Shown here: positions 1-33,527 of the stretch, one piece after another
How positions within the stretch are numbered: position 1 is the first letter of the stretch
Layout of the letters: the number at the start of each line of letters is the position of its first letter
Assembly: GCA_965199335.1 (NCBI GenBank)
Contig: CBDAQZ010000001.1
Location: 71,102-135,101 of the forward strand
Source: Alphaproteobacteria bacterium
GTDB lineage: Bacteria > Pseudomonadota > Alphaproteobacteria > CALMVH01
Reading direction: 5' to 3'
DNA: 64,000 bases
Position numbers and translations under genes: made by a program
The notes under the pieces: model-generated
The model's input: the letters and a program-made list of their open reading frames with translations, nothing else
Database searches by the model: none
Told to the model about the DNA's origin: nothing

Positions 1-2965
1 CGCCATAGGAGTTGATTTCCACCGGCGCACTGTTCCCGATCGATACCGGGATTTCCGTCGGCGCGTTGACGTTGCGCGTCTGCCCGGCCATCAACTGTTC
101 GGTCACGACTTTCAGCGTGTAGTCGACGCGATTGTTCGGCGACACGCTGGTAACCGCGATCTGATATTTGCCAGCGCCCAGACGACCCTTCCAGGGCTTG
201 GCCGATAACGCAGTATCTTCTTCGATCCGCACCGGACCGGTCAGCTTTGCCTGCATGCCGCTATCGATGGCGATCGTCACGTCGGCGGCGGCAGGCAGCG
301 TGAACTGCCAGACATCCGGCGTGCGCTCCTGATCCTTCTCCGGCTCCTGCCAGCGGTTCGTCATGTCTTCGCCGAAAGCGACCGGGAAGGGGCCATGGCC
401 CGAGCGTTCCACCGGCAGCTCGATCCGGTGGAGCAGGGTCACGGCACGGTTCTCCACGGCGCCTGGCAGCAGGATCATGCGATAGTCGCCGGGTTCGAAA
501 TCCTGCGCGATGTTGGCGGGACCGCCGGGGACCAGCAGCGGCCAGCCGTCGCTATCCTCAAGCCGCATGGTGAAGTCGCGGCCGAGCCCCATCGTGTGCA
601 GCGAATATTTGCCTGCCTTGTCGATATGGAACGTATAGGTCCCGGCCTCTCCGGGGGCGAGGGTGGTGCGCGCCCAGAGCTCGGGCTGCAGCACGCCTTC
701 GGTCTTCAGTGGCGTGTCGTCCAGCATCAGCCCGATCGGGCCGAAGCTCTGCGCGGGCGTGCCGACCGTCAGCTGGTAATCGCCCTCGCCCAGGTAACGT
801 TGAATCAGGAAATTGCGGCCGGTGCCGTTGGCCGTCTCGGCGGCGATCTCCGGAATGACGCGTGTCCGCAGCGTGCCCTTGGTTTCGATGATCCCGGTCG
901 ATTCAAGCCGGTAGAGCGCGGGCTTGGTGACGGGTACCGCAAAGGTCGCATGTTCGCCCTGGGCCAATGTCTGGAACACAGGCTTGTCCGGTGCCAGCGT
1001 AGCGAATTGCGGCAGTCCGGCCAGCAGCTTCGCGTCGATTGCAGGCAGCGGCGTATCCGCCTGCAGGTTTTTTGGCGCGAAGGCGATGCTGACGTAACGC
1101 GGATTGCCGGCAGGTAACGTCAGGCCTAGCCGGTGTTTGCCCGCACCGACTGCGACCGACAGAGCGCTTGCGGCCTGGTCCAGAACGAGCGGCAAGGCCG
1201 TGCCGTCTTCGGCGGTTGCGGTGATCCGGCCCTCCTCGGTCGCGACCACCGGCAGGGCGATCGTCTGGCCGCCGACCATCTCGAACGTGATGCCGGGGCC
1301 AAGCGCGATCGGCGAATTGTAGAGCCGTACCCCGGCATGACCGCCGGCCAGAGTGTTCAGATGGATCGTGTAATCGCCGCGCCGGGTGAACGGAACCTCG
1401 ATCATCGCTGCCGCCTGGCGCGGGGATTCGACGCTCGGCGCCGGGGTGCCCTGCGCGTGCAGCCGCAGCGTCAGGATACCCTTGCCGTTTTCCTTCGGCA
1501 CGATGTCGAGTGCATAGAAGCCCGGATCGAGCTGCCAGCCATAGCCGGACGGCTGGTAGCTGCGCCGGTAGCGCGGGTCGACGTAGAAAGACTCGATACG
1601 GTACTGGGCATCGACGCCTTCGCCATCGACGCTCAGATCGACCGGTTCGGTGACCTCGAGAAACAGCTCCGTCTGGTCAAGCAGGTTGAAGCGCCTTTGC
1701 CAGCTGATCGATTTTCCGACCTTGATCGCGGTCGAGGCGATGGCCGGCTCGCTGATGGATTTCTTGCCGGTCTCGTCCGCGATCACGATGGTCGGATCGA
1801 TCTCGTCCTGGTCATTGCCGCTCTGGTACATGGCAGCCCAGCCGGTGCTTTCGCTGCCGATGGCGATCACGGGCTTAGGATTACGGTTGTCGAACCAGGT
1901 CAGCCTATATCCCTGGCCCGGCTGCCGCTCGACCGTCACCAGCGAGAACTTGCCGGCATTGTCGTCGCCGGCGGTCGTCGTCTCGGCAAACGGATCGCGG
2001 CTGGTCTTGTCGATCGTGACGCGGTTCATGCCGCCTATGAACGGATTGCCGGACTCATAGGGCTGCACGCCGAGCGCCGCGTGTTCCGATTTGGCGATGT
2101 CCAGCCGGAAGTAAGTCGCGGTGGCCGGCACCAGGAAGCGGTCGAAGCCGGTGGACGATGCCACCTGCCACAAACGCCCGGCCTCGGCCAGTTTGGGGAT
2201 GCCGAAGCGGATGTGCAGAGGGTGGGCTTTCGACTCGCTGGACCATTTCTGACCGTCGCCGCCATAGGCGGTGACGCGGTACAGGCCCGGCTCGAGCGAA
2301 AGTGCCAGTTGCTTGACCGTCAAGGGCTGGCCGGCGGACGGATCGGCGGTCGCGGTTCCCGGTTTCGCGTCTACCAGCCACTTGCCGTCGCGCCACAGCC
2401 GCAGATCGTCCAGATTGCGTCCCGACGCCTCGATGGCGACATCGCGCCGCGCCGGGATGTTCAGCCAGTATGAACGCTGCTGGTGGTCGCCCAGATCGCT
2501 GTCGATCGGCTTCAGCTCGACCAGCTGCTGCTGGTCGGTGTTCAGCTCCACCGAGGGTAGGACCGCAACCGTAGCGTTGCCGGAGCCGTGCGGGTCGGAA
2601 ATCAGCTTTATCTTGTACTGGCCATGATCCAGGAAGGCGTCGATGCGGCCGTCGGCATGCCCTGCCGATCCTTGCGCCAGACCCGGGCCCGCCATGCGGT
2701 CGACAAGCTGGATCGCCGTGCCCTGGTCGCTTTTGACCGCGATCGAATAGCGCCCGAAGGTGGCGGCCTTCAGCAGGGTTTCATTCCTGCCCGTGGCGGT
2801 GAAAACCGATTTGTCGAGAGTGGCGGAGGCATCGGGGACGATAGGCGAGGCCTGTGCCGGCGGCGAAGGGTCCTGAGGGGCGGCGAAGGAAGGAAAGACA
2901 CCTGCAAACGTACAGATCGCGGCGAGGCCAACGCACCCGAATACGGCAAAAGCGACCCGCTGCAA
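1..2965 (-). CDS. Large secreted protein with repeated PPC/beta-sandwich-like modules (GxYxLxV motifs); partial, continues past the window start
   Basis: Manual reverse-strand translation from TTG at 2965 gives an open frame of more than 980 codons with no stop. An AAGGAA ribosome-binding site sits 7 nt upstream. The N-terminus is a Sec signal peptide (MQRVAFAVFGCVGLAAICTFAGVFPSFA-AP). Plus-strand ORFs 395-1117 and 1133-2473 have R/G/A-rich antisense-type composition. The gene is absent from the ORF track only because it is truncated by the window edge. Confidence 0.55.
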   Translation of the reverse strand, partial: MQRVAFAVFGCVGLAAICTFAGVFPSFAAPQDPSPPAQASPIVPDASATLDKSVFTATGRNETLLKAATFGRYSIAVKSDQGTAIQLVDRMAGPGLAQGSAGHADGRIDAFLDHGQYKIKLISDPHGSGNATVAVLPSVELNTDQQQLVELKPIDSDLGDHQQRSYWLNIPARRDVAIEASGRNLDDLRLWRDGKWLVDAKPGTATADPSAGQPLTVKQLALSLEPGLYRVTAYGGDGQKWSSESKAHPLHIRFGIPKLAEAGRLWQVASSTGFDRFLVPATATYFRLDIAKSEHAALGVQPYESGNPFIGGMNRVTIDKTSRDPFAETTTAGDDNAGKFSLVTVERQPGQGYRLTWFDNRNPKPVIAIGSESTGWAAMYQSGNDQDEIDPTIVIADETGKKSISEPAIASTAIKVGKSISWQRRFNLLDQTELFLEVTEPVDLSVDGEGVDAQYRIESFYVDPRYRRSYQPSGYGWQLDPGFYALDIVPKENGKGILTLRLHAQGTPAPSVESPRQAAAMIEVPFTRRGDYTIHLNTLAGGHAGVRLYNSPIALGPGITFEMVGGQTIALPVVATEEGRITATAEDGTALPLVLDQAASALSVAVGAGKHRLGLTLPAGNPRYVSIAFAPKNLQADTPLPAIDAKLLAGLPQFATLAPDKPVFQTLAQGEHATFAVPVTKPALYRLESTGIIETKGTLRTRVIPEIAAETANGTGRNFLIQRYLGEGDYQLTVGTPAQSFGPIGLMLDDTPLKTEGVLQPELWARTTLAPGEAGTYTFHIDKAGKYSLHTMGLGRDFTMRLEDSDGWPLLVPGGPANIAQDFEPGDYRMILLPGAVENRAVTLLHRIELPVERSGHGPFPVAFGEDMTNRWQEPEKDQERTPDVWQFTLPAAADVTIAIDSGMQAKLTGPVRIEEDTALSAKPWKGRLGAGKYQIAVTSVSPNNRVDYTLKVVTEQLMAGQTRNVNAPTEIPVSIGNSAPVEINSYG

Positions 2966-3098: not shown

Positions 3099-6000
3099 TT
3101 ACCAGTTGTACTTCACGCCCGCCTGGACCGTGTGATCCAGCTCGTGCTCGCGAATATCGGCATCGTATGACAGCGTCGCGCTCAGATTGGGGTTGAAGGC
3201 GGCGGTCATGCCGGCGCCAAGCAACGCGGCGTCCCGGCCCGGATGCACGCCCGAGATGCGGAAGCCCGCGGCGGGGGCGCCGGTGAAGCTTTCGCTCAAC
3301 GCCACATTGGTCGCCATGAAATCGTGCAGGTAGGCGGCTCTGATTTCGGGCGTCAGGGCGGTACCGTTCTTCGTCATCAGCGTCAGGTCTGCCCGTATCC
3401 CCGCCAGCGAACGCAGGGCGTTCAGGTTCGTGCCGTTGGTGTCGAAGTCCAGCCCGGCGACCGGCGAGCCGCTGGTGGCGTACCGGTTCTGGTGGATGTT
3501 GTCGTATTCGACGCCGATACGCGGCACCAGCGTCAGCTTGCCGCTGGTCAGTCCCTGCGGAACCGAGAAAGCATGGCTCAGTCCTGCCTCGGCGCTTAGC
3601 TCGTCGCCGTCATGGCGGGATGTCTGCTGGTAGCCCGTACCCGATGCCAGCGGCAGGTAGTCGCTGTCGTGATAATCGTTGAAGGCGTAGCCGACCGCGG
3701 CATCGAACACCATCGGGATGGGGTTCAGCTTGGCGCTGCCGTAAAGAGTGGCGCGGTAGGTATCGATATTGTTCTCGCCATTATCGCCGCTCAGGTTGAA
3801 GTCGGTATGCTCGTAGGCGACCGCGGCACCGATCAGCACGCCGGGTGCGACTTTCGTGTCGATGCCGCCGACGATGCCACCGGTGCGGTACTGGAATTCG
3901 GAGAAGCCGCTTTCGCCGCCGGTCTCGCCCAACACGCCGTAGCCGTGGACCCACAGGCTGGCCTGGTCTGCGCGCGTAGGGTTGCTGCCGCTGCAAGGGC
4001 CGAACATGGATTCGTCGGTCCTGCCCACAGGAACGTCGAACGTGCCGGGCAGGCCGGTCATCGCCATGCGCGTGGTGGTCAGGCCCTGGCATTCGTTCAT
4101 GCGCTCGACGATGAAATTCTGGAAGCTGGTCAGATTGGCAAGGTCGATGGTGCCGATATCGGCACGCAGCTCACCCAGCGCGCCTGCGACCAGCGCGCGC
4201 GGCGCATCGGCAAGCGAAGGACCGAAGATGTTGACCAGACCCTCGGCGAAGGCGCTGCTCGGCGCTACGCCCGGCAGGATCGACTTGATCGCGCCATCGA
4301 CGTTGCTGGTGTTCGGTGTCGAAGTCGCGCCCGGCGGCGGGGCCGCAAATATGGCTTCCGGACTGGTCACCGTCAGCTCTACCGCGTTCGGCAGATACGT
4401 CTCGGTGAAGAACGTCCCGGTGGAGGTCGCCGTGGCAGTGGCGAACTGGCCAGTGATGCCGTTGTTCGCGGTCAGGACGGTATATTGCTTGCCCAAGGCA
4501 TAGCTGCCTGGATCGTTGACGATCGAAAGCGTGCCGTTCAGCGCGGCGGTGCCGTTCACGGCCAGGACGCTGTTGCTGGTCGGGGTGACCCTGATCGTCA
4601 GGACGCTGTTCTGCGCCTGCGTGTAGTTGCCGTTGACGGTCAGCGCACCGATCGCCGTGCCGGGATTGACAGTGCCGTTATTGGTCAGCGCGCCGACGAT
4701 CGTGCCGTAGCCCATCAGCGTGCCGCCGCTGGCCACGGTCACCGGGCTGGTCAGCATCGCGGCCGAACCGGGCGTATCGCCTACCTGAAGAGTGCCTGCC
4801 GAGACGGTCGTACTGGCGAAGCTGCTGGCATTGTTCAGGGTCAGCGATCCGGCCGTGGACTTGATGAGCGCGCCGGTGCTCGAGACGGTTCCGGTAAAGG
4901 TGCCGGCATCGGCCGTCAGCGTACCGCCTGTCGAGGTGATCGCACCGCTGCCGGAAAGGGCGGACGCCTCTTGGTCGAAGCCGTTCATGGCAAAGGTCGC
5001 GCCGCTGGCGATGGCGAGGCCGGCGGGCCCGGCGGCATTGCTTGCGCCGAGCGCCAGCGTGCCGGCGTTGACGTTGGTCACGCCGCTATAGGTGTTCGCG
5101 CCGGACAGCGTCAGCGTACCCGCCGTGTTCTTGATCAGGTTGCCCGCGCCGCTGTAGACGCCCGAGAACGTACCGGATGCGACGGTCAGCGCGCCGCCGG
5201 TGGTTGTGACCGCACCCGACCCGGTCAAGGCGGTGACAGTCTGGTTGAAAGTGCCTAATGCCACCGTGCCCGCATTGCCGACCGCCAGCGTACCCGCGGC
5301 GATCGCATTGTCGACGCCGAGCGCCAGCGTGCCACCGTTCGCGTTGGTGCCGCCGCTATAGGCGTTGCCGGCGTTGGTCAGGGTAACGGTGTGCGTGCCT
5401 GCTGTGTTCAATGCACCGGTACCCGTCAACGCGCCGCTATAAGTATAGGAATTGCCGAGGCTGGTCAGCGTGCCGCCGCCGGCCGCAAGCGTCGCCGCAT
5501 TTCCGATCGTGATGCCGGCAGCCGATGCCCCCAGTGCGCCGCCGTTGAACGTCACGATGCCGCTACCCAGCGAGGCATTGTTGCCGGCGTTGATCGTGCC
5601 GGCGTTGATCGTGACCGCGCCGGTATAACCGGTTGCGCCGCTAAGGGCCTGCGTGCCGGTGCCGTTCTTGATCAGCGCACCGGTTCCCGTGATCGTACCT
5701 GCGTAGGTGTAGGCGCCACTGCCTGCCAGTGTAAGTGTGCTGGCGCCCGCCAGAACGGAACCGGCGTTGTTGCCGTTCAAACCGTTGATGGTCGGACTGA
5801 AGCCGTTTAGGTTCACCACGGCCGCCGGACCGTTCACGTTCACCGTTCCGGTGCCGAGCGCGGCGACGTTGGCGTAGGTCGCCGTCGTATTGCTGTTGAT
5901 GAAGGCACCGCCGGTAAAGGTGTTCGCGCCCGAGACGGATACGCTGCCGGTACCGGTCGAGGAGGACAGGATCAGCCGTCCTGCACCGCTTACGACGCCC

Positions 6001-7454
6001 GATAGCGTATCCGCGTTGCCGTTGGTATCGACGGTGCCGTTGCCGGTCAGCGTTATATTGTTGCTGATCGTGGTTCCGGCGCTCGTCTGGATCGTGCCGC
6101 CCGCGCCGCCGAAGGTGATGGCGCTGCCAAGGTCGCTGGCGTTGGTGACTCCGGCCAGCGTTGCCGCGTTGTTGATCGTCAGGGCGCCGGTATAGTTGTT
6201 CGCGCCCGAAAGCGTAACCGTGCCGCCCAGCACCTGCACCGCGCCGGCGCCGCTGATAGCGCCCGAGTACGTGCCCGTACCGGTGTTCGTGAACTGAAGC
6301 GTTCCTGCATCCGCTACGCCGTTGTTGATCGGCAGGCTGGCAGTGGTGACGTTCAACGTACCGCCCGAATTGATGACCGAGCCGCCGGTATAGGTGTTCG
6401 TCCCTGTCAGGGACAATGTACCGGTGCCGCCATAAGTCACGCTGCCGGATCCCGAGATGACGCCGGCAAAGGTGCTGCTGCCCGAACCGTCCACCGTCAG
6501 GGAATTCGCGCCCAGCGCCAGCGTGCTGGTCGAATCGCCGCTCAGATTGTTCAGCGTCTGGCTGAAGCCGTTGAAGTTGAACGAGCCGTTGTTGGTGAAG
6601 CTGACACCGCTGGATTGCGCCAGCGTGTTGGCGCTCCCCGCGACCAGGGTGCCACCTGTTATGGTGGTCGAACCCGTATAGGTGACCGCCTGCGTCAGGG
6701 TCAGCGTGCCACCTGTCAGGGCGAAGTTGCTGCCCGCGCCCGAGATGACGCCGTCATAGGTCGTGGTCGACCCCGCGCCGCCGACCGACAGGTTGGAGCC
6801 GGTGCCGCCCAGCATGATCTTTTCCGAGCCGCCGCTGGTATCCGAGATCGAGCCGATGATGTTCGTACCGGTCGTCTGGCTTAAATCCAGCGTGCCGCCG
6901 GCGCTGCTGTAGGCGCCCATGATCGTGGCTGCATTGCCGTTGACGATCAGCGAGCTGTTGCCGATCGAAACGCTGCCGCTGAAAGTCAGGTTGCCGTTCG
7001 TGGTATTGAAGCTTTCACCACCGGTCGAGGTGTTGGTCAGCGTTCCGATGGTCAGCGTCGACCCCGTGCCGGTCAGATCGAACGTCTGGTTGGCCGTGGA
7101 CGAATTCGTCAGCGTACCGATATTGAACGAAACCGCGTTGCCTTCGAGGAAGGTGTATGAGACGCCGCCGTTGAACAGCAGGGTGTTGAGCGGATTGCTG
7201 GTATTGGCAAAGGTGATCGCCGACGTCTTGGTGACCGCCGCGGAGTTTCCGAACACCGCAGTATCCGCCGCGCCCGGGGCGTTGCCGGTATCGTAGTTGC
7301 TGCCGAGGTTGAAATTGCCGTTGCTGGTAGTCGAACCCGCCCCATCATACGTATCTGTCGCCGCCATGGCTTCCATGGGTGATCCAACGGCGACAAGCGT
7401 TAATGCAGTGCCCGCGAGAAGGATGGTCTGGAGGCGGCGGCTGAAACGGGGCAT
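3099..7454 (-). CDS. Type Va autotransporter (passenger with PATR-type G/T/S-rich beta-helix repeats plus C-terminal beta-barrel translocator)
   Basis: 1451 aa. Signal peptide, then dozens of GTGTLTLSGANTYTGGT-like repeats. The C-terminal roughly 280 aa is a beta-domain ending ...VKYNW; a terminal aromatic is typical of autotransporter barrels. Confidence 0.9.
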   Translation of the reverse strand: MPRFSRRLQTILLAGTALTLVAVGSPMEAMAATDTYDGAGSTTSNGNFNLGSNYDTGNAPGAADTAVFGNSAAVTKTSAITFANTSNPLNTLLFNGGVSYTFLEGNAVSFNIGTLTNSSTANQTFDLTGTGSTLTIGTLTNTSTGGESFNTTNGNLTFSGSVSIGNSSLIVNGNAATIMGAYSSAGGTLDLSQTTGTNIIGSISDTSGGSEKIMLGGTGSNLSVGGAGSTTTYDGVISGAGSNFALTGGTLTLTQAVTYTGSTTITGGTLVAGSANTLAQSSGVSFTNNGSFNFNGFSQTLNNLSGDSTSTLALGANSLTVDGSGSSTFAGVISGSGSVTYGGTGTLSLTGTNTYTGGSVINSGGTLNVTTASLPINNGVADAGTLQFTNTGTGTYSGAISGAGAVQVLGGTVTLSGANNYTGALTINNAATLAGVTNASDLGSAITFGGAGGTIQTSAGTTISNNITLTGNGTVDTNGNADTLSGVVSGAGRLILSSSTGTGSVSVSGANTFTGGAFINSNTTATYANVAALGTGTVNVNGPAAVVNLNGFSPTINGLNGNNAGSVLAGASTLTLAGSGAYTYAGTITGTGALIKNGTGTQALSGATGYTGAVTINAGTINAGNNASLGSGIVTFNGGALGASAAGITIGNAATLAAGGGTLTSLGNSYTYSGALTGTGALNTAGTHTVTLTNAGNAYSGGTNANGGTLALGVDNAIAAGTLAVGNAGTVALGTFNQTVTALTGSGAVTTTGGALTVASGTFSGVYSGAGNLIKNTAGTLTLSGANTYSGVTNVNAGTLALGASNAAGPAGLAIASGATFAMNGFDQEASALSGSGAITSTGGTLTADAGTFTGTVSSTGALIKSTAGSLTLNNASSFASTTVSAGTLQVGDTPGSAAMLTSPVTVASGGTLMGYGTIVGALTNNGTVNPGTAIGALTVNGNYTQAQNSVLTIRVTPTSNSVLAVNGTAALNGTLSIVNDPGSYALGKQYTVLTANNGITGQFATATATSTGTFFTETYLPNAVELTVTSPEAIFAAPPPGATSTPNTSNVDGAIKSILPGVAPSSAFAEGLVNIFGPSLADAPRALVAGALGELRADIGTIDLANLTSFQNFIVERMNECQGLTTTRMAMTGLPGTFDVPVGRTDESMFGPCSGSNPTRADQASLWVHGYGVLGETGGESGFSEFQYRTGGIVGGIDTKVAPGVLIGAAVAYEHTDFNLSGDNGENNIDTYRATLYGSAKLNPIPMVFDAAVGYAFNDYHDSDYLPLASGTGYQQTSRHDGDELSAEAGLSHAFSVPQGLTSGKLTLVPRIGVEYDNIHQNRYATSGSPVAGLDFDTNGTNLNALRSLAGIRADLTLMTKNGTALTPEIRAAYLHDFMATNVALSESFTGAPAAGFRISGVHPGRDAALLGAGMTAAFNPNLSATLSYDADIREHELDHTVQAGVKYNW

Positions 7455-7634: not shown

Positions 7635-8564
7635 ATGTCTCAGCCCGATCGTCGAACAGTCCTGCGTCTCATGGGCGCTCTCAGCGTTGTGGCATTTGCC
7701 GGTGAGTCGCCGCTGGGCGCGCAATATGACTGGCGCCATGATGGGCCGGAAACCAGACCCCATGCTCCTGTCGCCGCGAAGCCGCACAAGGAAACTATCC
7801 AGGGCCGCCCCTTCTGGACCGGGACCGAAGAAGCCAAGGCCAGCGCGCGGGTAACGATGGAAGGGTGGGTGTTGCAACCCAGCGTCGATACGCGCCAGAG
7901 CATGGAGATTTATTCGGAGCGCCATCCGCTTCTGGGCGGTCTTGCTCAGCTTGTCGGCGGCGGCGGTGTTTTTGCGCATCTGTATTTCGGCATTCACGAT
8001 GCGAAATCGTCGATCTATGTCCATGGCTTCAACATCGACCCGGACGGCAATCGGCTGGAAGCCTTCGATCCAGGCGGCACGCTCAAGATGGTGGCGCTGA
8101 CGCCAAGGCAAAGCGAGGATGACCGCCAGAGGCATGGCCACAGGCCTTTGCCGCATCAGGCGCTCGATAGCGTTCAGGTCGGTTCATCGGCACAGTTGCT
8201 GGGCCGTATTCTCGATCTCGGGGCGGCGGTCAATCGGGCGGATATTCCTTATCATATGTTGCTGACGAATTCGAACGGGCTGGCGGCGGCGGTGTTCAAT
8301 ATTGTCCAGCCCGGACGTACCGATTGCTCGACCCATAGCTGCCCGGCGTTGCTGGCTGCTGGAGGGGGCCATCTCGTTCCCGGCGTCGATTCCGGCATCG
8401 CGGCAAAGGTCGGCAAGCTGGGTCGCGTGTATGAAAGCCTGGCGCTTAGCGGCGTCGGAATGATCGACCTGGCCAGCCGGTTCAATCAGGAGTCCAACCT
8501 GCAGATACTGGCCAACCTCGACCGGGCGCCTGTTCGGGCGCAAGTCCTGGGCTTGAACACCTAA
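7635..8564 (+). CDS. Hypothetical exported protein, possible Tat substrate
   Basis: 309 aa. The N-terminus [19 protein letters not shown] resembles a twin-arginine signal. A GGAG motif lies upstream. The overlapping minus ORF 7560-8156 has junk composition. Confidence 0.5.
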
Positions 8565-8637: not shown

Positions 8638-10065
<1,428 letters not shown>

Positions 10066-10108
10066 AAATGCTATGGTATAACTACATATCTAAATAAGAG
10101 AATTCATC

Positions 10109-10837
10109 ATGGCACAAACATCTCGGCCAGATTTAATCTTGTTCGACATCGGACAGGTAATTGTGCCATATGATGATCATAAGTTGATTGAAAATATCGC
10201 TGCTCGTTGTAGCGATCCCGAAGCTTCCACTGAGATCAAATCATATTTAACGACCGACTGGAAAGCTTTACAGACAGGGGCAATGGCAGACGAACGATTA
10301 CATCAGAAGTTCGTAATCGGTCTTGGTTTCGATGGTAGTTTTAAGGACTTTCAGCAAGTCTGGTGTGCTCACACAGCACGCGATCCTGCGATGGAAACCC
10401 TTGTACGTGAAGTCGAGAAGACGACGGCAACAGCTTTGTTATCCAATGCAACAAAAATCCACATGCAACATTTTACCTCCAATTATGAGTTGATTGGGCG
10501 GATGAATTCTAATGGCAATGCTCATTTTTCCTGTTTGATGGGAGCCGTAAAACCTGACAGAGAAGCGTTCGAAATTACTCTTGATAGTGAAAGCCGGCGA
10601 TTGGGACGCCATATAAGTCCGGAAAAGACGCTTTTCATCGATGACATTTCGCAGATGACAGAGGGCGCAAAAGCAGTTGGAATGGATACAATTGTTTTCA
10701 CTGGAATTGCAGCTTTGATACCCGCTCTCGTGTCTCGCTGTGTACCAATCGGAGTGGCTGGCGTTAATCTACCAACCACCGCTTGGGCAGGAGCACGTGC
10801 CGGTATTATTGGTCATGATTCTACCAAGCCAATCTGA
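10109..10837 (+). CDS. HAD-superfamily hydrolase (variant motif I FDIGQV; motifs SNAT / K / LFIDD present)
   Basis: 242 aa. HAD motifs II-IV are recognisable. GC is about 42%, against about 63% in the flanks. Confidence 0.7.
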   Translation: MAQTSRPDLILFDIGQVIVPYDDHKLIENIAARCSDPEASTEIKSYLTTDWKALQTGAMADERLHQKFVIGLGFDGSFKDFQQVWCAHTARDPAMETLVREVEKTTATALLSNATKIHMQHFTSNYELIGRMNSNGNAHFSCLMGAVKPDREAFEITLDSESRRLGRHISPEKTLFIDDISQMTEGAKAVGMDTIVFTGIAALIPALVSRCVPIGVAGVNLPTTAWAGARAGIIGHDSTKPI

Positions 10838-10887
10838 CTCCATGACACGCGCAGTTTAAACCAGTATAAGGTCTGCAAAACAGCGTC

Positions 10888-11391
10888 ATGGAGACCGGCA
10901 TGATAAGAAAAATCTATAACAGGATAGTGAACCTGTCTCCTGCGGTCGTGCTGGTTATCGGCCTCGCTTTCATGCTTTCGGGTTTCTTTTTCCAGACCGA
11001 TCTTGGCTACGACGATGCGCCGATTGCAACCTCCTACTCCTTGTCTCTCGGGGCAAACTGCGAGAGCGACTACAAGCAATGCCATGTCAGGCCGCGGGTT
11101 GTAGTGGGCTATCGTATCGAAACCACCCGCAACGAGGTCGTCGCCTTCATGCCCGGCATGGACGGGCTGATGGACAAATACAACGAATGCACCATCTGGA
11201 GCGCATCCGACTGGCAGTGCGAGGCCGGCCGTATCTCGATGCATGACGGGCTTATCACTCACAATGAGTTCGAGACCGACCACGATATCTATTATGTCCC
11301 GAAGATCGCCTGGAAAATGGCGAAGCTGCACATCCTGCCGCTGAATTCCGTGCGTCATTCGCCCCCGCCGAAATCGGTTCACGGCACCTAG
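10888..11391 (+). CDS. Hypothetical membrane-anchored protein (N-terminal TM helix, four Cys in the C-domain)
   Basis: 167 aa, in the same low-GC island. The antisense ORF 10813-11727 has junk composition. Confidence 0.5.
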   Translation: METGMIRKIYNRIVNLSPAVVLVIGLAFMLSGFFFQTDLGYDDAPIATSYSLSLGANCESDYKQCHVRPRVVVGYRIETTRNEVVAFMPGMDGLMDKYNECTIWSASDWQCEAGRISMHDGLITHNEFETDHDIYYVPKIAWKMAKLHILPLNSVRHSPPPKSVHGT

Positions 11392-11443
11392 CCGGAACCA
11401 AATTGCTTCACCGGTCTTTCTCTTCTCGAACCAGGAGGAAGAC

Positions 11444-11659
11444 ATGGCGGAAAAGACCGTAAAAGCCGGCGACAAAGTCAGCTGGAGCTCTTCGCAAGGC
11501 GAGGTGAAGGGTACGGTAAAGAAGAAACTGACCTCACCCATCAAGATCAAGGGGCATGCGGTCAAGGCATCGCCGGATAATCCAGAATACCTCGTCCAGT
11601 CCGACAAGACCGGCGCAAAGGCTGCACACAAGCCGGGAGAGCTGAAAAAAACCAAGTAA
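11444..11659 (+). CDS. DUF2945-family small protein (hypervirulence-associated TUDOR-like fold)
   Basis: 71 aa. KAGDKVSWSSSQGEVKGTV...KGHAVKASPDNPEYLVQSDKTGAKAAHKPGELKK matches the DUF2945 consensus (KxGDxVxW...G.V.G....KGH...AS.D.P.Y...SDKT...AAHK). A strong AGGAGGAAG ribosome-binding site lies 5 nt upstream. Confidence 0.65.
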   Translation: MAEKTVKAGDKVSWSSSQGEVKGTVKKKLTSPIKIKGHAVKASPDNPEYLVQSDKTGAKAAHKPGELKKTK

Positions 11660-11896
11660 GAGGCAGATACATTCTGTAAGTATTCAGATAAAATTTTACT
11701 CAAAACATAAATATAGATGGAAATCACTTAACTAAGTATTGAGTATATATATTTTAGGTTGTCTTGCGCGGCTGAATCAGATTCCTCGTTTGGGGCCCAA
11801 GTGGCAAAAATGCACTTAATGTGTATTCCAGGCAACGAATCGCGGTACTGCCGATTTTGCTTTACAGCCCGATTGTGACTGTGCCAGAACCCCGCC

Positions 11897-12340
11897 ATGA
11901 AATTGAAACTGTTGCGCCTGGCCTGTGCCTTCATCGCCGCATCGTTCGCAACCCTTGTCAGCGTCCCGGCCCGTGCCGATACGCCCGACAGCAAGAAAGT
12001 CGAAACGGGCATCGCCAGCTACTATGGCGATGACTGGCAGGACCGCCGCACCGCCAACGGCGAGCGGTTCAACCCCGAGGCTTTTACGGCGGCACACCGC
12101 AATCTGCCGCTTGGCGCCTGGGTCAAGGTGACAAACCTGATCAACGGGCGTAGCATCAACGTCCGAATAAACGATCGCAACGCGCCATCGCATACCCGAA
12201 TCATCGATCTGTCAAAGGCCGCCGCCGATGCCGTTGGCATGCTGCAGGCCGGCTTGGCGAAAGTGAAGATCGAGCGCATACTGCCGCCGGGCCATCGAAT
12301 CGCGATGCACGAGCCGCCGCACAAGCCCGTTTACAATTAG
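11897..12340 (+). CDS. rlpA: Septal ring lytic transglycosylase RlpA-family protein (DPBB domain)
   Basis: Signal peptide, then GIASYYG...TANGE.F...TAAH..LPLG..V.VTNL.NGRS..VRINDRNAP; this is the RlpA double-psi beta-barrel signature. Confidence 0.85.
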   Translation: MKLKLLRLACAFIAASFATLVSVPARADTPDSKKVETGIASYYGDDWQDRRTANGERFNPEAFTAAHRNLPLGAWVKVTNLINGRSINVRINDRNAPSHTRIIDLSKAAADAVGMLQAGLAKVKIERILPPGHRIAMHEPPHKPVYN

Positions 12341-32618: not shown

Positions 32619-33440
32619 ATGGCCATGTTGTTACCAGACCGGGCCATCGTCGCCGTTTCGGGCGAGGATCGCATAGCATTCCTGCAGGGACTCATCACCA
32701 ACGACGTCGACAGCCTGCGCGACGGCGAGGTCGCCTATTCCTGCCTGCTGACCGCCCAGGGCCGGTTTCTGCACGATTTCTTCGTCATTGCCGCCGGCGA
32801 CCGCTTGCTGTTCGACTGCGAAGCCGGCCGTCGCGACGACCTGATTCGCCGCTTGAAACAGTTCCGTCTGCGGGCGAAGGTGGATGTGACGGACGAAATG
32901 GCAGCCTATTCCGTCCATTGTCATTCCCGCGAAGGCGGGAATCCAGGATTGGATACGGGATATGCCTACGCCGATCCACGGCATGTCGACCTTGGCTACC
33001 GATCTATCGTTCCGGCTGGTTTAATCCTTGATTCACGCTTTCGCGGGAATGACGGGGAGTGGGAAGGCTACGAACGTATCCGCATTACTCTCGGCGTTCC
33101 CGACGGCAGCCGCGACATGGTGCCGGAGCAGGCCTTGCTGCTGGAAAACAACATCGACCGCCTGAACGGCATTTCCTTCACCAAGGGGTGCTATGTCGGG
33201 CAGGAAGTCACGGCGCGCATGCACCACAGGGGCGGGGTGAAGAAACGCCTGACGCCGGTGCGTATGGAAGCCGCCGCGCCACCGGTGGGAATGCCGGTTA
33301 CGATAGATGGCACCGAAATCGGCGAGATGCGATCGAGTTGCGGCGATCTGGGACTGGCATTGTTGCGGGCCCGTGCGGAAGAGGGCCAGATACATTGTGG
33401 TGATGCAAAGCTGTATGTGCTGAACCACACATCCACCTGA
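32619..33440 (+). CDS. ygfZ: tRNA-modifying folate-binding protein YgfZ (CAF17 family) carrying a 45-codon in-frame repeat insertion
   Basis: The KGCYVGQE signature (ISFTKGCYVGQEVTARMHHRG) is present. The low-complexity segment ...CHSREGGNPGLD...RFRGNDGE... is encoded by the palindromic element at 32919-33053. Confidence 0.85.
   Translation: MAMLLPDRAIVAVSGEDRIAFLQGLITNDVDSLRDGEVAYSCLLTAQGRFLHDFFVIAAGDRLLFDCEAGRRDDLIRRLKQFRLRAKVDVTDEMAAYSVHCHSREGGNPGLDTGYAYADPRHVDLGYRSIVPAGLILDSRFRGNDGEWEGYERIRITLGVPDGSRDMVPEQALLLENNIDRLNGISFTKGCYVGQEVTARMHHRGGVKKRLTPVRMEAAAPPVGMPVTIDGTEIGEMRSSCGDLGLALLRARAEEGQIHCGDAKLYVLNHTST
32919..33053. repeat. MITE/REP-like element (135 bp) with terminal inverted copies of a GTCATTCC-hairpin-GGAATCC unit, inserted in-frame in ygfZ
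   Basis: The left unit is tGTCATTCCCGCGAAGGCGGGAATCCAGG (32919-32948). The right unit is the reverse complement GTCATTCCCGCGAAAGCGTGAATC (33030-33053). 135 bp equals 45 codons. The antisense frame reads ...IPAFAGMT..., the known junk-peptide signature of this repeat class. Confidence 0.55.
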
Positions 33441-33442
33441 TT

Positions 33443-33527
33443 GTCATTCCGGTGCGTAGCACCGGAATCCATACCGCTGATAAAGGGAGGCACGACCGCA
33501 TGGATTCCGTGCTGCGCACGGAATGAC
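33443..33527. repeat. Second copy of the same palindromic element family (two hairpin units in inverted orientation) in the ygfZ/glyS convergent spacer
   Basis: GTCATTCCGGTGCgtaGCACCGGAATCCAT ... ATGGATTCCGTGCtgcGCACGGAATGAC. It starts 2 nt after the ygfZ stop and ends 7 nt before the glyS stop. Confidence 0.6.

Follow-up and report, generated by a model that had tools for sequence, protein, structure and literature searches.

Two oppositely oriented NTS/SRM hairpin units translated in frame within ygfZ of an uncultured alphaproteobacterium

Introduction

The Neisseria Transformation Sequence (NTS) is an oriented 28-nt hairpin with the consensus CGTCATTCCCGCGMAVGCGGGAATCYRG that contains the dRS3 core ATTCCC-N8-GGGAAT, and it has been described together with a degenerate relative, the Ssn-related motif (SRM; Nat Commun 2025;16:2388, PMC11893778). 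In the passages of that paper drawn on here, SsnA, a single-domain GIY-YIG protein of 94 residues, binds this hairpin on single-stranded DNA and cleaves immediately upstream of it, the motif usually flanks ssn genes, and it is present far outside Neisseria. Here we describe two units of this kind that lie in opposite orientation inside ygfZ of an uncultured alphaproteobacterium, in a stretch of 64,000 nucleotides of contig CBDAQZ010000001.1 (assembly GCA_965199335.1, positions 71,102 to 135,101 of the forward strand) which is referred to in the following as the window. Each arm of the inverted repeat in ygfZ is one copy of the NTS/SRM, that is, of a kind of repeat which is already known; the units share with the described motif the sequence and the oriented, semi-palindromic hairpin, and units of that motif likewise often occur in convergent pairs and are spread across phyla. 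The arrangement differs, however, in that the motif is described in those passages as flanking genes, often ssnA, whereas both copies in ygfZ are translated and flank a native protein motif, in a window with no visible ssn gene and a low local copy number.

Three other classes of short repeats invite comparison. Classical MITEs (miniature transposable elements with inverted repeats) such as Correia/nemis likewise carry terminal inverted repeats capable of pairing in RNA and are sometimes found in or next to genes, but the interior of the ygfZ block is host gene sequence, and the block neither shows a target-site duplication nor is repeated as a whole. REP/REPIN sequences, associated with RAYT Y1 transposases, and bacterial interspersed mosaic elements (BIMEs) are short hairpin units which often form inverted doublets of ∼70–140 bp. 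Such REP/REPIN doublets probably depend on one domesticated enzyme, a nuclease or transposase, that acts on single-stranded hairpins. The head of the units in the ygfZ region is GTCAT and not GTAG, and the enzyme reported in the passages on Ssn is of the GIY-YIG and not of the Y1 transposase type. Finally, Rickettsia palindromic elements (RPEs) are palindromic, lie in frame in unrelated conserved genes and are tolerated as surface-compatible peptides (PMC10969869). RPEs are single units of ∼150 bp with a conserved peptide of their own, whereas ygfZ contains two units of 28 nt that enclose native sequence and add no net length, a distinction drawn from the descriptions of the elements.

Results

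Two NTS units in an intact ygfZ

The host gene is an intact open reading frame (ORF) for a folate-binding Fe-S/tRNA-modification protein of the CAF17/IBA57 family (Table 1). Pfam profile searches identify the domains GCV_T (PF01571) and Beta-barrel_CAF17_C (PF25455), the ORF matches the NCBIfam model TIGR03317 (5.5e-25), and the family motif K-G-C-Y-x-G-Q-E is found as KGCYVGQE. Human mitochondrial IBA57 (PDB 6qe3) aligns with residues 5–260 of the window protein at E = 3e-33, and YgfZ of Niveispirillum, the best relative with a name, is ∼50% identical to it.

A repeat search returned two inverted arms of 31 nt in this gene that are 90% complementary and separated by 72 nt. The 25-mer GTCATTCCCGCGAAGGCGGGAATCC occurs at 32920–32944 on the plus strand without mismatch and at 33029–33053 on the minus strand with three mismatches, while no match was obtained in 100 dinucleotide-preserving shuffles. 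Full texts queried with GTCATTCCCGCG pointed to PMC11893778 and thus to the NTS. When scored against the NTS consensus, the two units (Table 1) stand well apart from every other 28-mer of the window, among which the best score is 20/28 at 128,000 positions. The left unit forms a hairpin with a perfect 8-bp stem and a 4-nt loop and the right unit one with an 8-bp stem containing one mismatch and again a 4-nt loop; each is given an orientation by GTC at its head and CYRG at its tail, and the two point in opposite directions. The left unit, in which the dRS3 core is intact, falls within the limit of at most one mismatch given by the NTS authors in the passages drawn on here; the right unit is one mismatch beyond this limit, yet clearly the same motif. 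The loops read GAAG and GAAA, so that position M of the consensus is the same in both arms. The degenerate SRM pattern, used here as HGTCWYN(0-2)YYVSBRHN(0-5)WNVSBRGN(0-2)RNCYNB and matched on average 0.6 times in mononucleotide shuffles of the window, is matched by the left unit, but not by the right unit or by a variant doublet located downstream of ygfZ.

Across the block the ORF is translated as CHSREGGNPGLDTGYAYADPRHVDLGYRSIVPAGLILDSRFRGNDGE, and the opposite strand reads WIPAFAGMT. The preliminary description of this DNA is therefore borne out in several respects: the inverted repeat is real, ygfZ stays open with its domains intact, the arms are copies of a genuine and widespread class of palindromic repeats that is read in frame, and the peptide IPAFAGMT noted for the opposite strand is present.

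Altogether the window contains two canonical and two variant units in its 64 kb; the inverted-repeat block as a whole has no other copy there, and an Rfam scan of the window returned only a tRNA. Three further matches to GTCATTCC in the window (852, 36762 and 58320) lack a hairpin and were rejected as chance resemblances. As an aside, the native ygfZ DNA encoding FRLRAKV (TTCCGTCTGCGGGCGAAGGTGG, 32862–32885) resembles the NTS part GCGAAGGCGG (32926–32940) at 9 of 10 nt; this resemblance, which lies ∼35 nt upstream of the left unit, may reflect either microhomology or chance.

The sequence between the units is native ygfZ

The block had been proposed to be a single MITE-like element of 135 bp that adds 45 codons to ygfZ. 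An alignment of the window protein with 21 homologues at 46–63% identity (22 sequences in total) leads to a different picture. The interior encodes the motif DPR-x4-LG-x-R, of which D119, P120, R121, G126 and R128 are invariant in 22 of 22 sequences, including those free of the repeat, and human IBA57 reads DPR..MGWR at the corresponding place. Because this motif is invariant among the orthologues and kept in IBA57, the 72-nt spacer is native ygfZ, and repeat-free orthologues thus hold the same segment as far as the middle of the block is concerned. Only ∼10 residues on each side of the core are derived from the repeat. Furthermore, the window protein (273 residues) is not longer than its aligned orthologues (236–311 residues), and relative to IBA57 it shows no net insertion except for ∼2 residues in the second loop; the predicted insertion of 45 residues is absent.

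No target-site duplication is found at the borders of the block (...CCATT|GTCATT and AATGAC|GGGGA), and the 72-nt interior has no second copy in the window or in the fetched loci. Of the hallmarks of a MITE, the terminal inverted repeats are thus present, while a target-site duplication and multiple copies of the whole element with corresponding empty sites are not; of those of an RPE, which is a unit of ∼100–150 bp inserted in frame with a family-specific peptide, the reading frame and the location in loops are shared, but there is neither the insertion of a unit nor a net gain in length. The length of 135 bp, equal to 45 codons, proved to be a matter of interpretation: the published 28-nt definition places the two units within a span of 136 nt (Table 1), and the delimitation at 135 nt is therefore arbitrary.

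The preliminary description had also suggested that the insert marks a tolerated surface loop. An AlphaFold2 model of the window protein, built on the orthologue alignment (mean predicted local distance difference test score, pLDDT, 86), supports a location in loops, of which there are, however, two and not one: residues 101–110, encoded by the left unit, form the end of strand E97–102 and the loop ahead of E115–118, while residues 137–145, encoded by the right unit, form the loop linking E127–132 to helix H145–157. The pLDDT drops to 68–75 over the stretches derived from the repeat, and in the 22-sequence alignment the two regions that bear the units are the most length-variable parts of the YgfZ family.

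Orthologues with, without and with decayed units

The closest relatives of the window protein come from a small clade of metagenome-assembled alphaproteobacteria. Synteny is shared, with a divergent GT9 gene upstream in every locus that reaches it and convergent glyS (glyS/glyQ) downstream wherever the contig extends far enough. The orthologues P0002 (locus L001) and P0003 (locus L002), which are as divergent as 63% and 61% identity to the window protein, respectively, carry both units at the same junctions: the left junction reads TGT/TAT CAT YCC CGC and the right one ...GGG RAY GAC GNG GAR TGG in the window, L001 and L002. The units of L002 score 25/28 and 28/28 against the NTS consensus, the right one thus being a perfect copy; both match the strict SRM pattern, and their loops (GCAG/GCAG) agree fully. 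The units of L001 score 23/28 and 25/28, with 3–5 uncompensated deviations from the NTS, and L003 retains only a faint remnant of the left unit.

In three short forms of the protein (Table 1) both units are missing, and since the outgroups and IBA57 retain the aromatic-x-V-x strand that is lost along with them, these are deletions and not empty sites. No lineage in the sample carries just one of the two units. Neighbour-joining trees, calculated for YgfZ and for the adjacent GT9, resolve only the pair P0002 and P0004 (99–100% bootstrap support) and, weakly, the pair P0003 and P0019 (76% in the YgfZ tree). Given the same junctions in three orthologues, decay in a fourth and deletion in the three short forms, the simplest reading is that the pair of units was ancestral to this alphaproteobacterial clade. 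There is no sign of a recent horizontal transfer of an NTS-core-NTS block, as the identity of the core between the window and L002 (67% at the nucleotide level) is not above the gene-wide value.

Conservation of the units at the DNA level

The ygfZ genes of the window and L002 are 66% identical in DNA sequence, and their third codon positions are near saturation (0.48–0.49 gene-wide). Counted by hand and without gaps on the codon alignment, third positions are identical at 15 of 18 sites inside the units and at 6 of 14 sites in the enclosed core. The left units of the two genes exhibit four differences, all nonsynonymous, of which two fall on degenerate positions of the NTS consensus (M and Y) and two constitute a compensatory change of a stem pair from T-A to C-G. 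Because synonymous sites are kept and the differences between the left units follow the NTS consensus, the units appear, at the level of sequence, to evolve as copies of the NTS rather than as codons. This suggests that the units are subject to constraint or homogenisation at the DNA level, in a manner that depends on the lineage.

The NTS in other genomes and in other genes

Scanning 185,579 species genomes for the 24-nt NTS core yielded at least 120 stretches (L007–L126), from Proteobacteria, Bacteroidota, Chloroflexota, Planctomycetota, Nitrospirota, the candidate phyla radiation and a nanoarchaeon. Among the matches listed, the NTS often occurs as convergent doublets of 66–137 bp with unrelated spacers, and 18 of 20 doublets have one and the same loop variant in both arms, against an expectation of 0.31 (P = 5e-8). 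Hence, the arms of an NTS doublet are normally copies of each other, which suggests an origin of doublets by inverted copying, or else homogenisation between the arms. Locus L039 provides an example of such convergent doublets (4242–4317 and 6336–6424), and the match between arms holds even where one locus has two doublets of differing variants; in L114 and L125 the complementarity of the doublet extends into the outer flanks.

Locus L087 contains an ssn-like GIY-YIG gene (4485–4739) between NTS copies at 4363 (plus strand) and 4881 (minus strand), and thus the NTS-ssn-NTS layout found in the passages on Ssn. Small GIY-YIG genes resembling ssn are also located beside or between NTS copies in L041, L118 and L121. 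A tblastn search with an approximate cd10448-like query matches L041, L087, L118 and L121 at E-values of 1e-27 to 1e-37, which validates the query. The same search, combined with a regular expression for the GIY-YIG motif, detected no gene of the ssn type either in L001–L006 or in the window, which covers 64 kb of a source contig of 530 kb.

Surveying 163 NTS matches in 120 loci, with the genes confirmed by Pfam, we identified six conserved genes among the matches listed in which the NTS is read in frame (Table 1). In TruB of L083 the whole doublet including its spacer seems to be extra sequence relative to the Mycobacterium tuberculosis protein. In-frame NTS units are thus a recurrent phenomenon across phyla that is comparable to RPEs, and it is doubtful that an in-frame insertion into a conserved gene is as rare as previously proposed. 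Since the units are in frame in ygfZ and in at least six other genes, the recurring peptides IPAFAGMT, DSRLRGND, VIPAKAGIQ and SFPRRRES are sometimes real parts of proteins. Text searches for derived peptides (IPAFAGMT and others) found no paper, and the passages searched of PMC11893778 contain no mention of in-frame or intragenic NTS copies.

Table 1. Positions of ygfZ, its repeat units and related features. Positions refer to the window unless a locus is named.
Feature	Positions	Strand	Remarks
ygfZ (CAF17/IBA57 family)	32619..33440	+	273 aa, intact ORF
Left NTS/SRM hairpin unit, TGTCATTCCCGCGAAGGCGGGAATCCAG	32919..32946	+	27/28 to NTS consensus; translated as C101–G110, CHSREGGNPG
Native ygfZ core between the units	32947..33026	+	contains DPR-x4-LG-x-R (D119–R128, 32973–33002); orthologue and IBA57 alignment
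Right NTS unit, inverted; minus strand CGTCATTCCCGCGAAAGCGTGAATCAAG	33027..33054	-	26/28 to NTS consensus; plus strand translated as L137–D145, LDSRFRGND
Long inverted repeat	32920..33053		arms 32920–32950 and 33023–33053; the two units plus 3–6 extra bases
Second doublet, variant SRM-like hairpin, GTCATTCCGGTGC-gta-GCACCGGAATCC ... GGATTCCGTGC-tgc-GCACGGAATGAC	33443..33527		10-bp and 9-bp perfect stems
YgfZ of window, L001 (P0002), L002 (P0003)			both units; same codon junctions, orientation and frame
YgfZ of L003 (P0004), sister of P0002			long loops; left unit looks decayed (CAT TCC GAA AAC GAG)
P0006, P0007, P0019 (short forms)			both units absent; native aromatic-x-V-x strand absent too
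L026, Mur ligase	1562-1643		doublet, in frame
L032, GatB	6317-6340		in frame
L042, Tgt	6951-6974		doublet, in frame
L080, DNA methylase	1511-1534		in frame
L083, TruB	1690-1713		doublet; 19 extra residues vs M. tuberculosis TruB (1sgv)
L096, P-type ATPase	7687-7710		in frame

Discussion

We propose that the inverted repeat in ygfZ consists of two separate, oppositely oriented copies of the NTS/SRM which occupy two variable loops on either side of DPR...LGxR, that the 72 nt between them are ordinary ygfZ sequence, and that the pair is ancestral, tolerated by the loops, and maintained at the DNA level in some of the lineages. We assign a probability of about 0.74 to this reading as a whole. The pair would have been acquired in the ancestor of the small alphaproteobacterial clade, either in two events of one unit each or in one event by which an inverted copy of the first unit was placed across the core, a variant suggested by the matching arms of NTS doublets elsewhere. 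The units would have been tolerated where they replaced or filled variable surface loops, and those of the window and L002 would have been held near the NTS consensus by a force acting on DNA, for which gene conversion from other NTS copies and selection linked to an NTS-binding protein are candidates, while the units of L001 and L003 would be decaying as ordinary coding sequence. As far as YgfZ is concerned, the units are most probably neutral passengers. A single event of inverted copying, for example by template switching in a quasi-palindrome, and two independent insertions are equally compatible with the data, although the former would explain at once the pairing, the unchanged length and the lack of lineages with one unit.

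Several points weigh against this proposal. With regard to maintenance at the DNA level, (i) the synonymous-site comparison is based on 18 sites (P about 0.002), (ii) neither a further canonical NTS copy that could serve as a reservoir for homogenisation nor an ssn-like gene that could supply the enzyme was found in the 64 kb of the window, and (iii) the density of SRMs is low in all readable contigs of the clade, including L001–L003 when extended to 11–21 kb, a sample too small to relate density to the preservation of units. In addition, the two arms in L001 differ in their loop variant (AAA and CAA), which makes the co-variation of arms within ygfZ inconsistent. With regard to common descent, the sample comprises only 7–8 orthologues, and the unit-bearing P0003 is placed as sister of the short form P0019, so that a single gain would require several independent deletions or a recombination event. 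Moreover, the loops are as long as those of the outgroups, and hence a simple insertion must have been offset by deletions, or else the units were introduced by replacement.

The view that the block is a single MITE of 135 bp, with terminal inverted repeats and a cargo of ∼80 bp, that was inserted in frame and added 45 residues, draws on the inverted 31-nt arms with their GTCAT ends pointing outward, on the length of the block (134–136 bp), which falls in the range of NTS doublets elsewhere, and on TruB of L083, where at least one doublet seems to constitute a true unit insertion. We nevertheless consider it very unlikely for ygfZ, where the interior is an invariant YgfZ/IBA57 motif in its correct position, the protein is not lengthened, and neither a target-site duplication nor another copy of the interior was encountered in the window or the fetched loci; the orthologue and IBA57 alignments rule the model out, as orthologues free of the arms keep the DPR...LGxR segment. 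Chance resemblance or an artefact of assembly might be suspected because the source is an uncultured metagenome-assembled genome and NCBI/ENA assemblies are the only records of P0001. Such an origin is exceedingly improbable in view of scores of 27/28 and 26/28 over a background maximum of 20/28, the lack of matches in shuffles, and the recurrence of the same units at the same junctions in three contigs that were assembled independently from different samples.

Two further alternatives concern how the units came to be where they are and why they persist. Independent, recent and site-specific insertions of the NTS into the same two loops, acting as hot spots, would account for units that are far better conserved than the neutral sites of the same gene and for the position of P0003 among unit-less short forms, and the different SRM variants in the ygfZ-glyS spacers of the window and L002 do indicate repeated colonisation. 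Yet at least three lineages would each have had to gain insertions at two sites, with the codon junctions, the orientation and the frame identical every time, the junctions show no evident target motif, and the graded decay in L001 and L003 at the same positions is what descent predicts; we therefore regard recurrent insertion as rather unlikely. Alternatively, though in our view improbably, the inverted pair might have a function as a structure in the mRNA or DNA of ygfZ, such as an RNase III substrate or a stem that pauses translation and so tunes the level of YgfZ, or a control site for recombination or Ssn; its conservation would then be due to selection for this function and not to the dynamics of the repeat. 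For the RNA from 32905 to 33068, the predicted fold has the arms paired in a 31-bp stem (−79.3 kcal/mol, z = −6.1), the conservation at the nucleotide level includes one compensatory change in a stem, and in Neisseria transcripts RNase III cuts Correia elements at their inverted repeats when these are paired (PMC10969869). In L002, however, the compensatory change keeps the local hairpin while weakening the pairing between arms, and the units are absent from the great majority of 120 YgfZ homologues among the matches listed. Because they are decayed in L001 and L003 and deleted in three relatives whose ygfZ is otherwise intact, the structure is dispensable and a required function is improbable. 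An effect of the predicted arm-paired stem on the ygfZ mRNA is possible.

Overall, we are thus dealing with a known kind of repeat in a modestly interesting arrangement, certain aspects of which appear to be new. These are (i) the translation of the motif inside a gene of an essential pathway, whereas PMC11893778, in the passages considered, treats the motif as flanking genes, (ii) the same situation in at least six further conserved genes of very different phyla, and (iii) the retention of the NTS consensus at synonymous sites of the ygfZ units, while such sites are saturated in the enclosed motif, which is invariant at the protein level. More tentatively, NTS/SRM hairpins may by far outlast neutral sites in coding DNA through a DNA-level constraint of their own, and, separately, an inverted pair may form in one step around native DNA, for example by a template switch ('palindromisation') that carries a copy of the first unit across the 72-nt core; we offer both as conjectures of low probability. 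If the constraint is real, it bears on the spread and persistence of the hairpins, which the passages on Ssn leave open. If these ideas are true, the surface loops of proteins would be rewritten at constant length by the NTS family, an agent not recognised as such, and gain, maintenance, decay and deletion could be followed in the ygfZ clade as in a natural time series. For annotation, the locus teaches that an inverted repeat within a gene need not mean that a unit was inserted.

Other features of the locus

The variant doublet downstream of ygfZ (Table 1), with the stems ATTCCGGTGC/GCACCGGAAT and ATTCCGTGC/GCACGGAAT, occupies nearly all of the 94-nt gap between the stop codons of the convergent genes ygfZ and glyS and shares the inverted-doublet architecture of REP/REPIN sequences. 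Its right hairpin, together with a T-run, has a terminator-like score on the plus strand and, judged from its sequence, looks like an intrinsic terminator for ygfZ. GATT is found on both sides of the doublet, either as a 4-bp target duplication or by chance. In L002 a third variant of hairpin doublet (3760–3890, GTCATTGCGAGCG...GCAATCC) overlaps the 3' end of ygfZ and provides its final codons (VIASDKRSNPD) as well as its stop, while L004 has a single unit at the end of ygfZ (3690–3732, VIASEKRSNAD); in L127 the conserved 3' end of glyS, in reverse complement, comes immediately after the stop codon of ygfZ, with no apparent spacer. The end of ygfZ has thus been colonised repeatedly, with recurrent C-termini that derive from repeats. 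The C-terminus of a further YgfZ homologue, P0018 (...VMPAQAGIQDC), corresponds to a reading frame of the same hairpin family, which suggests that a repeat unit is read through at the 3' end of that gene.

Elsewhere in the window, an island of low GC content (0.49 at 10001–12000, compared with ∼0.62 elsewhere) lies just past gatB and may have been acquired horizontally; it contains ORFs of 242 aa (10109–10837) and 167 aa (10888–11391).

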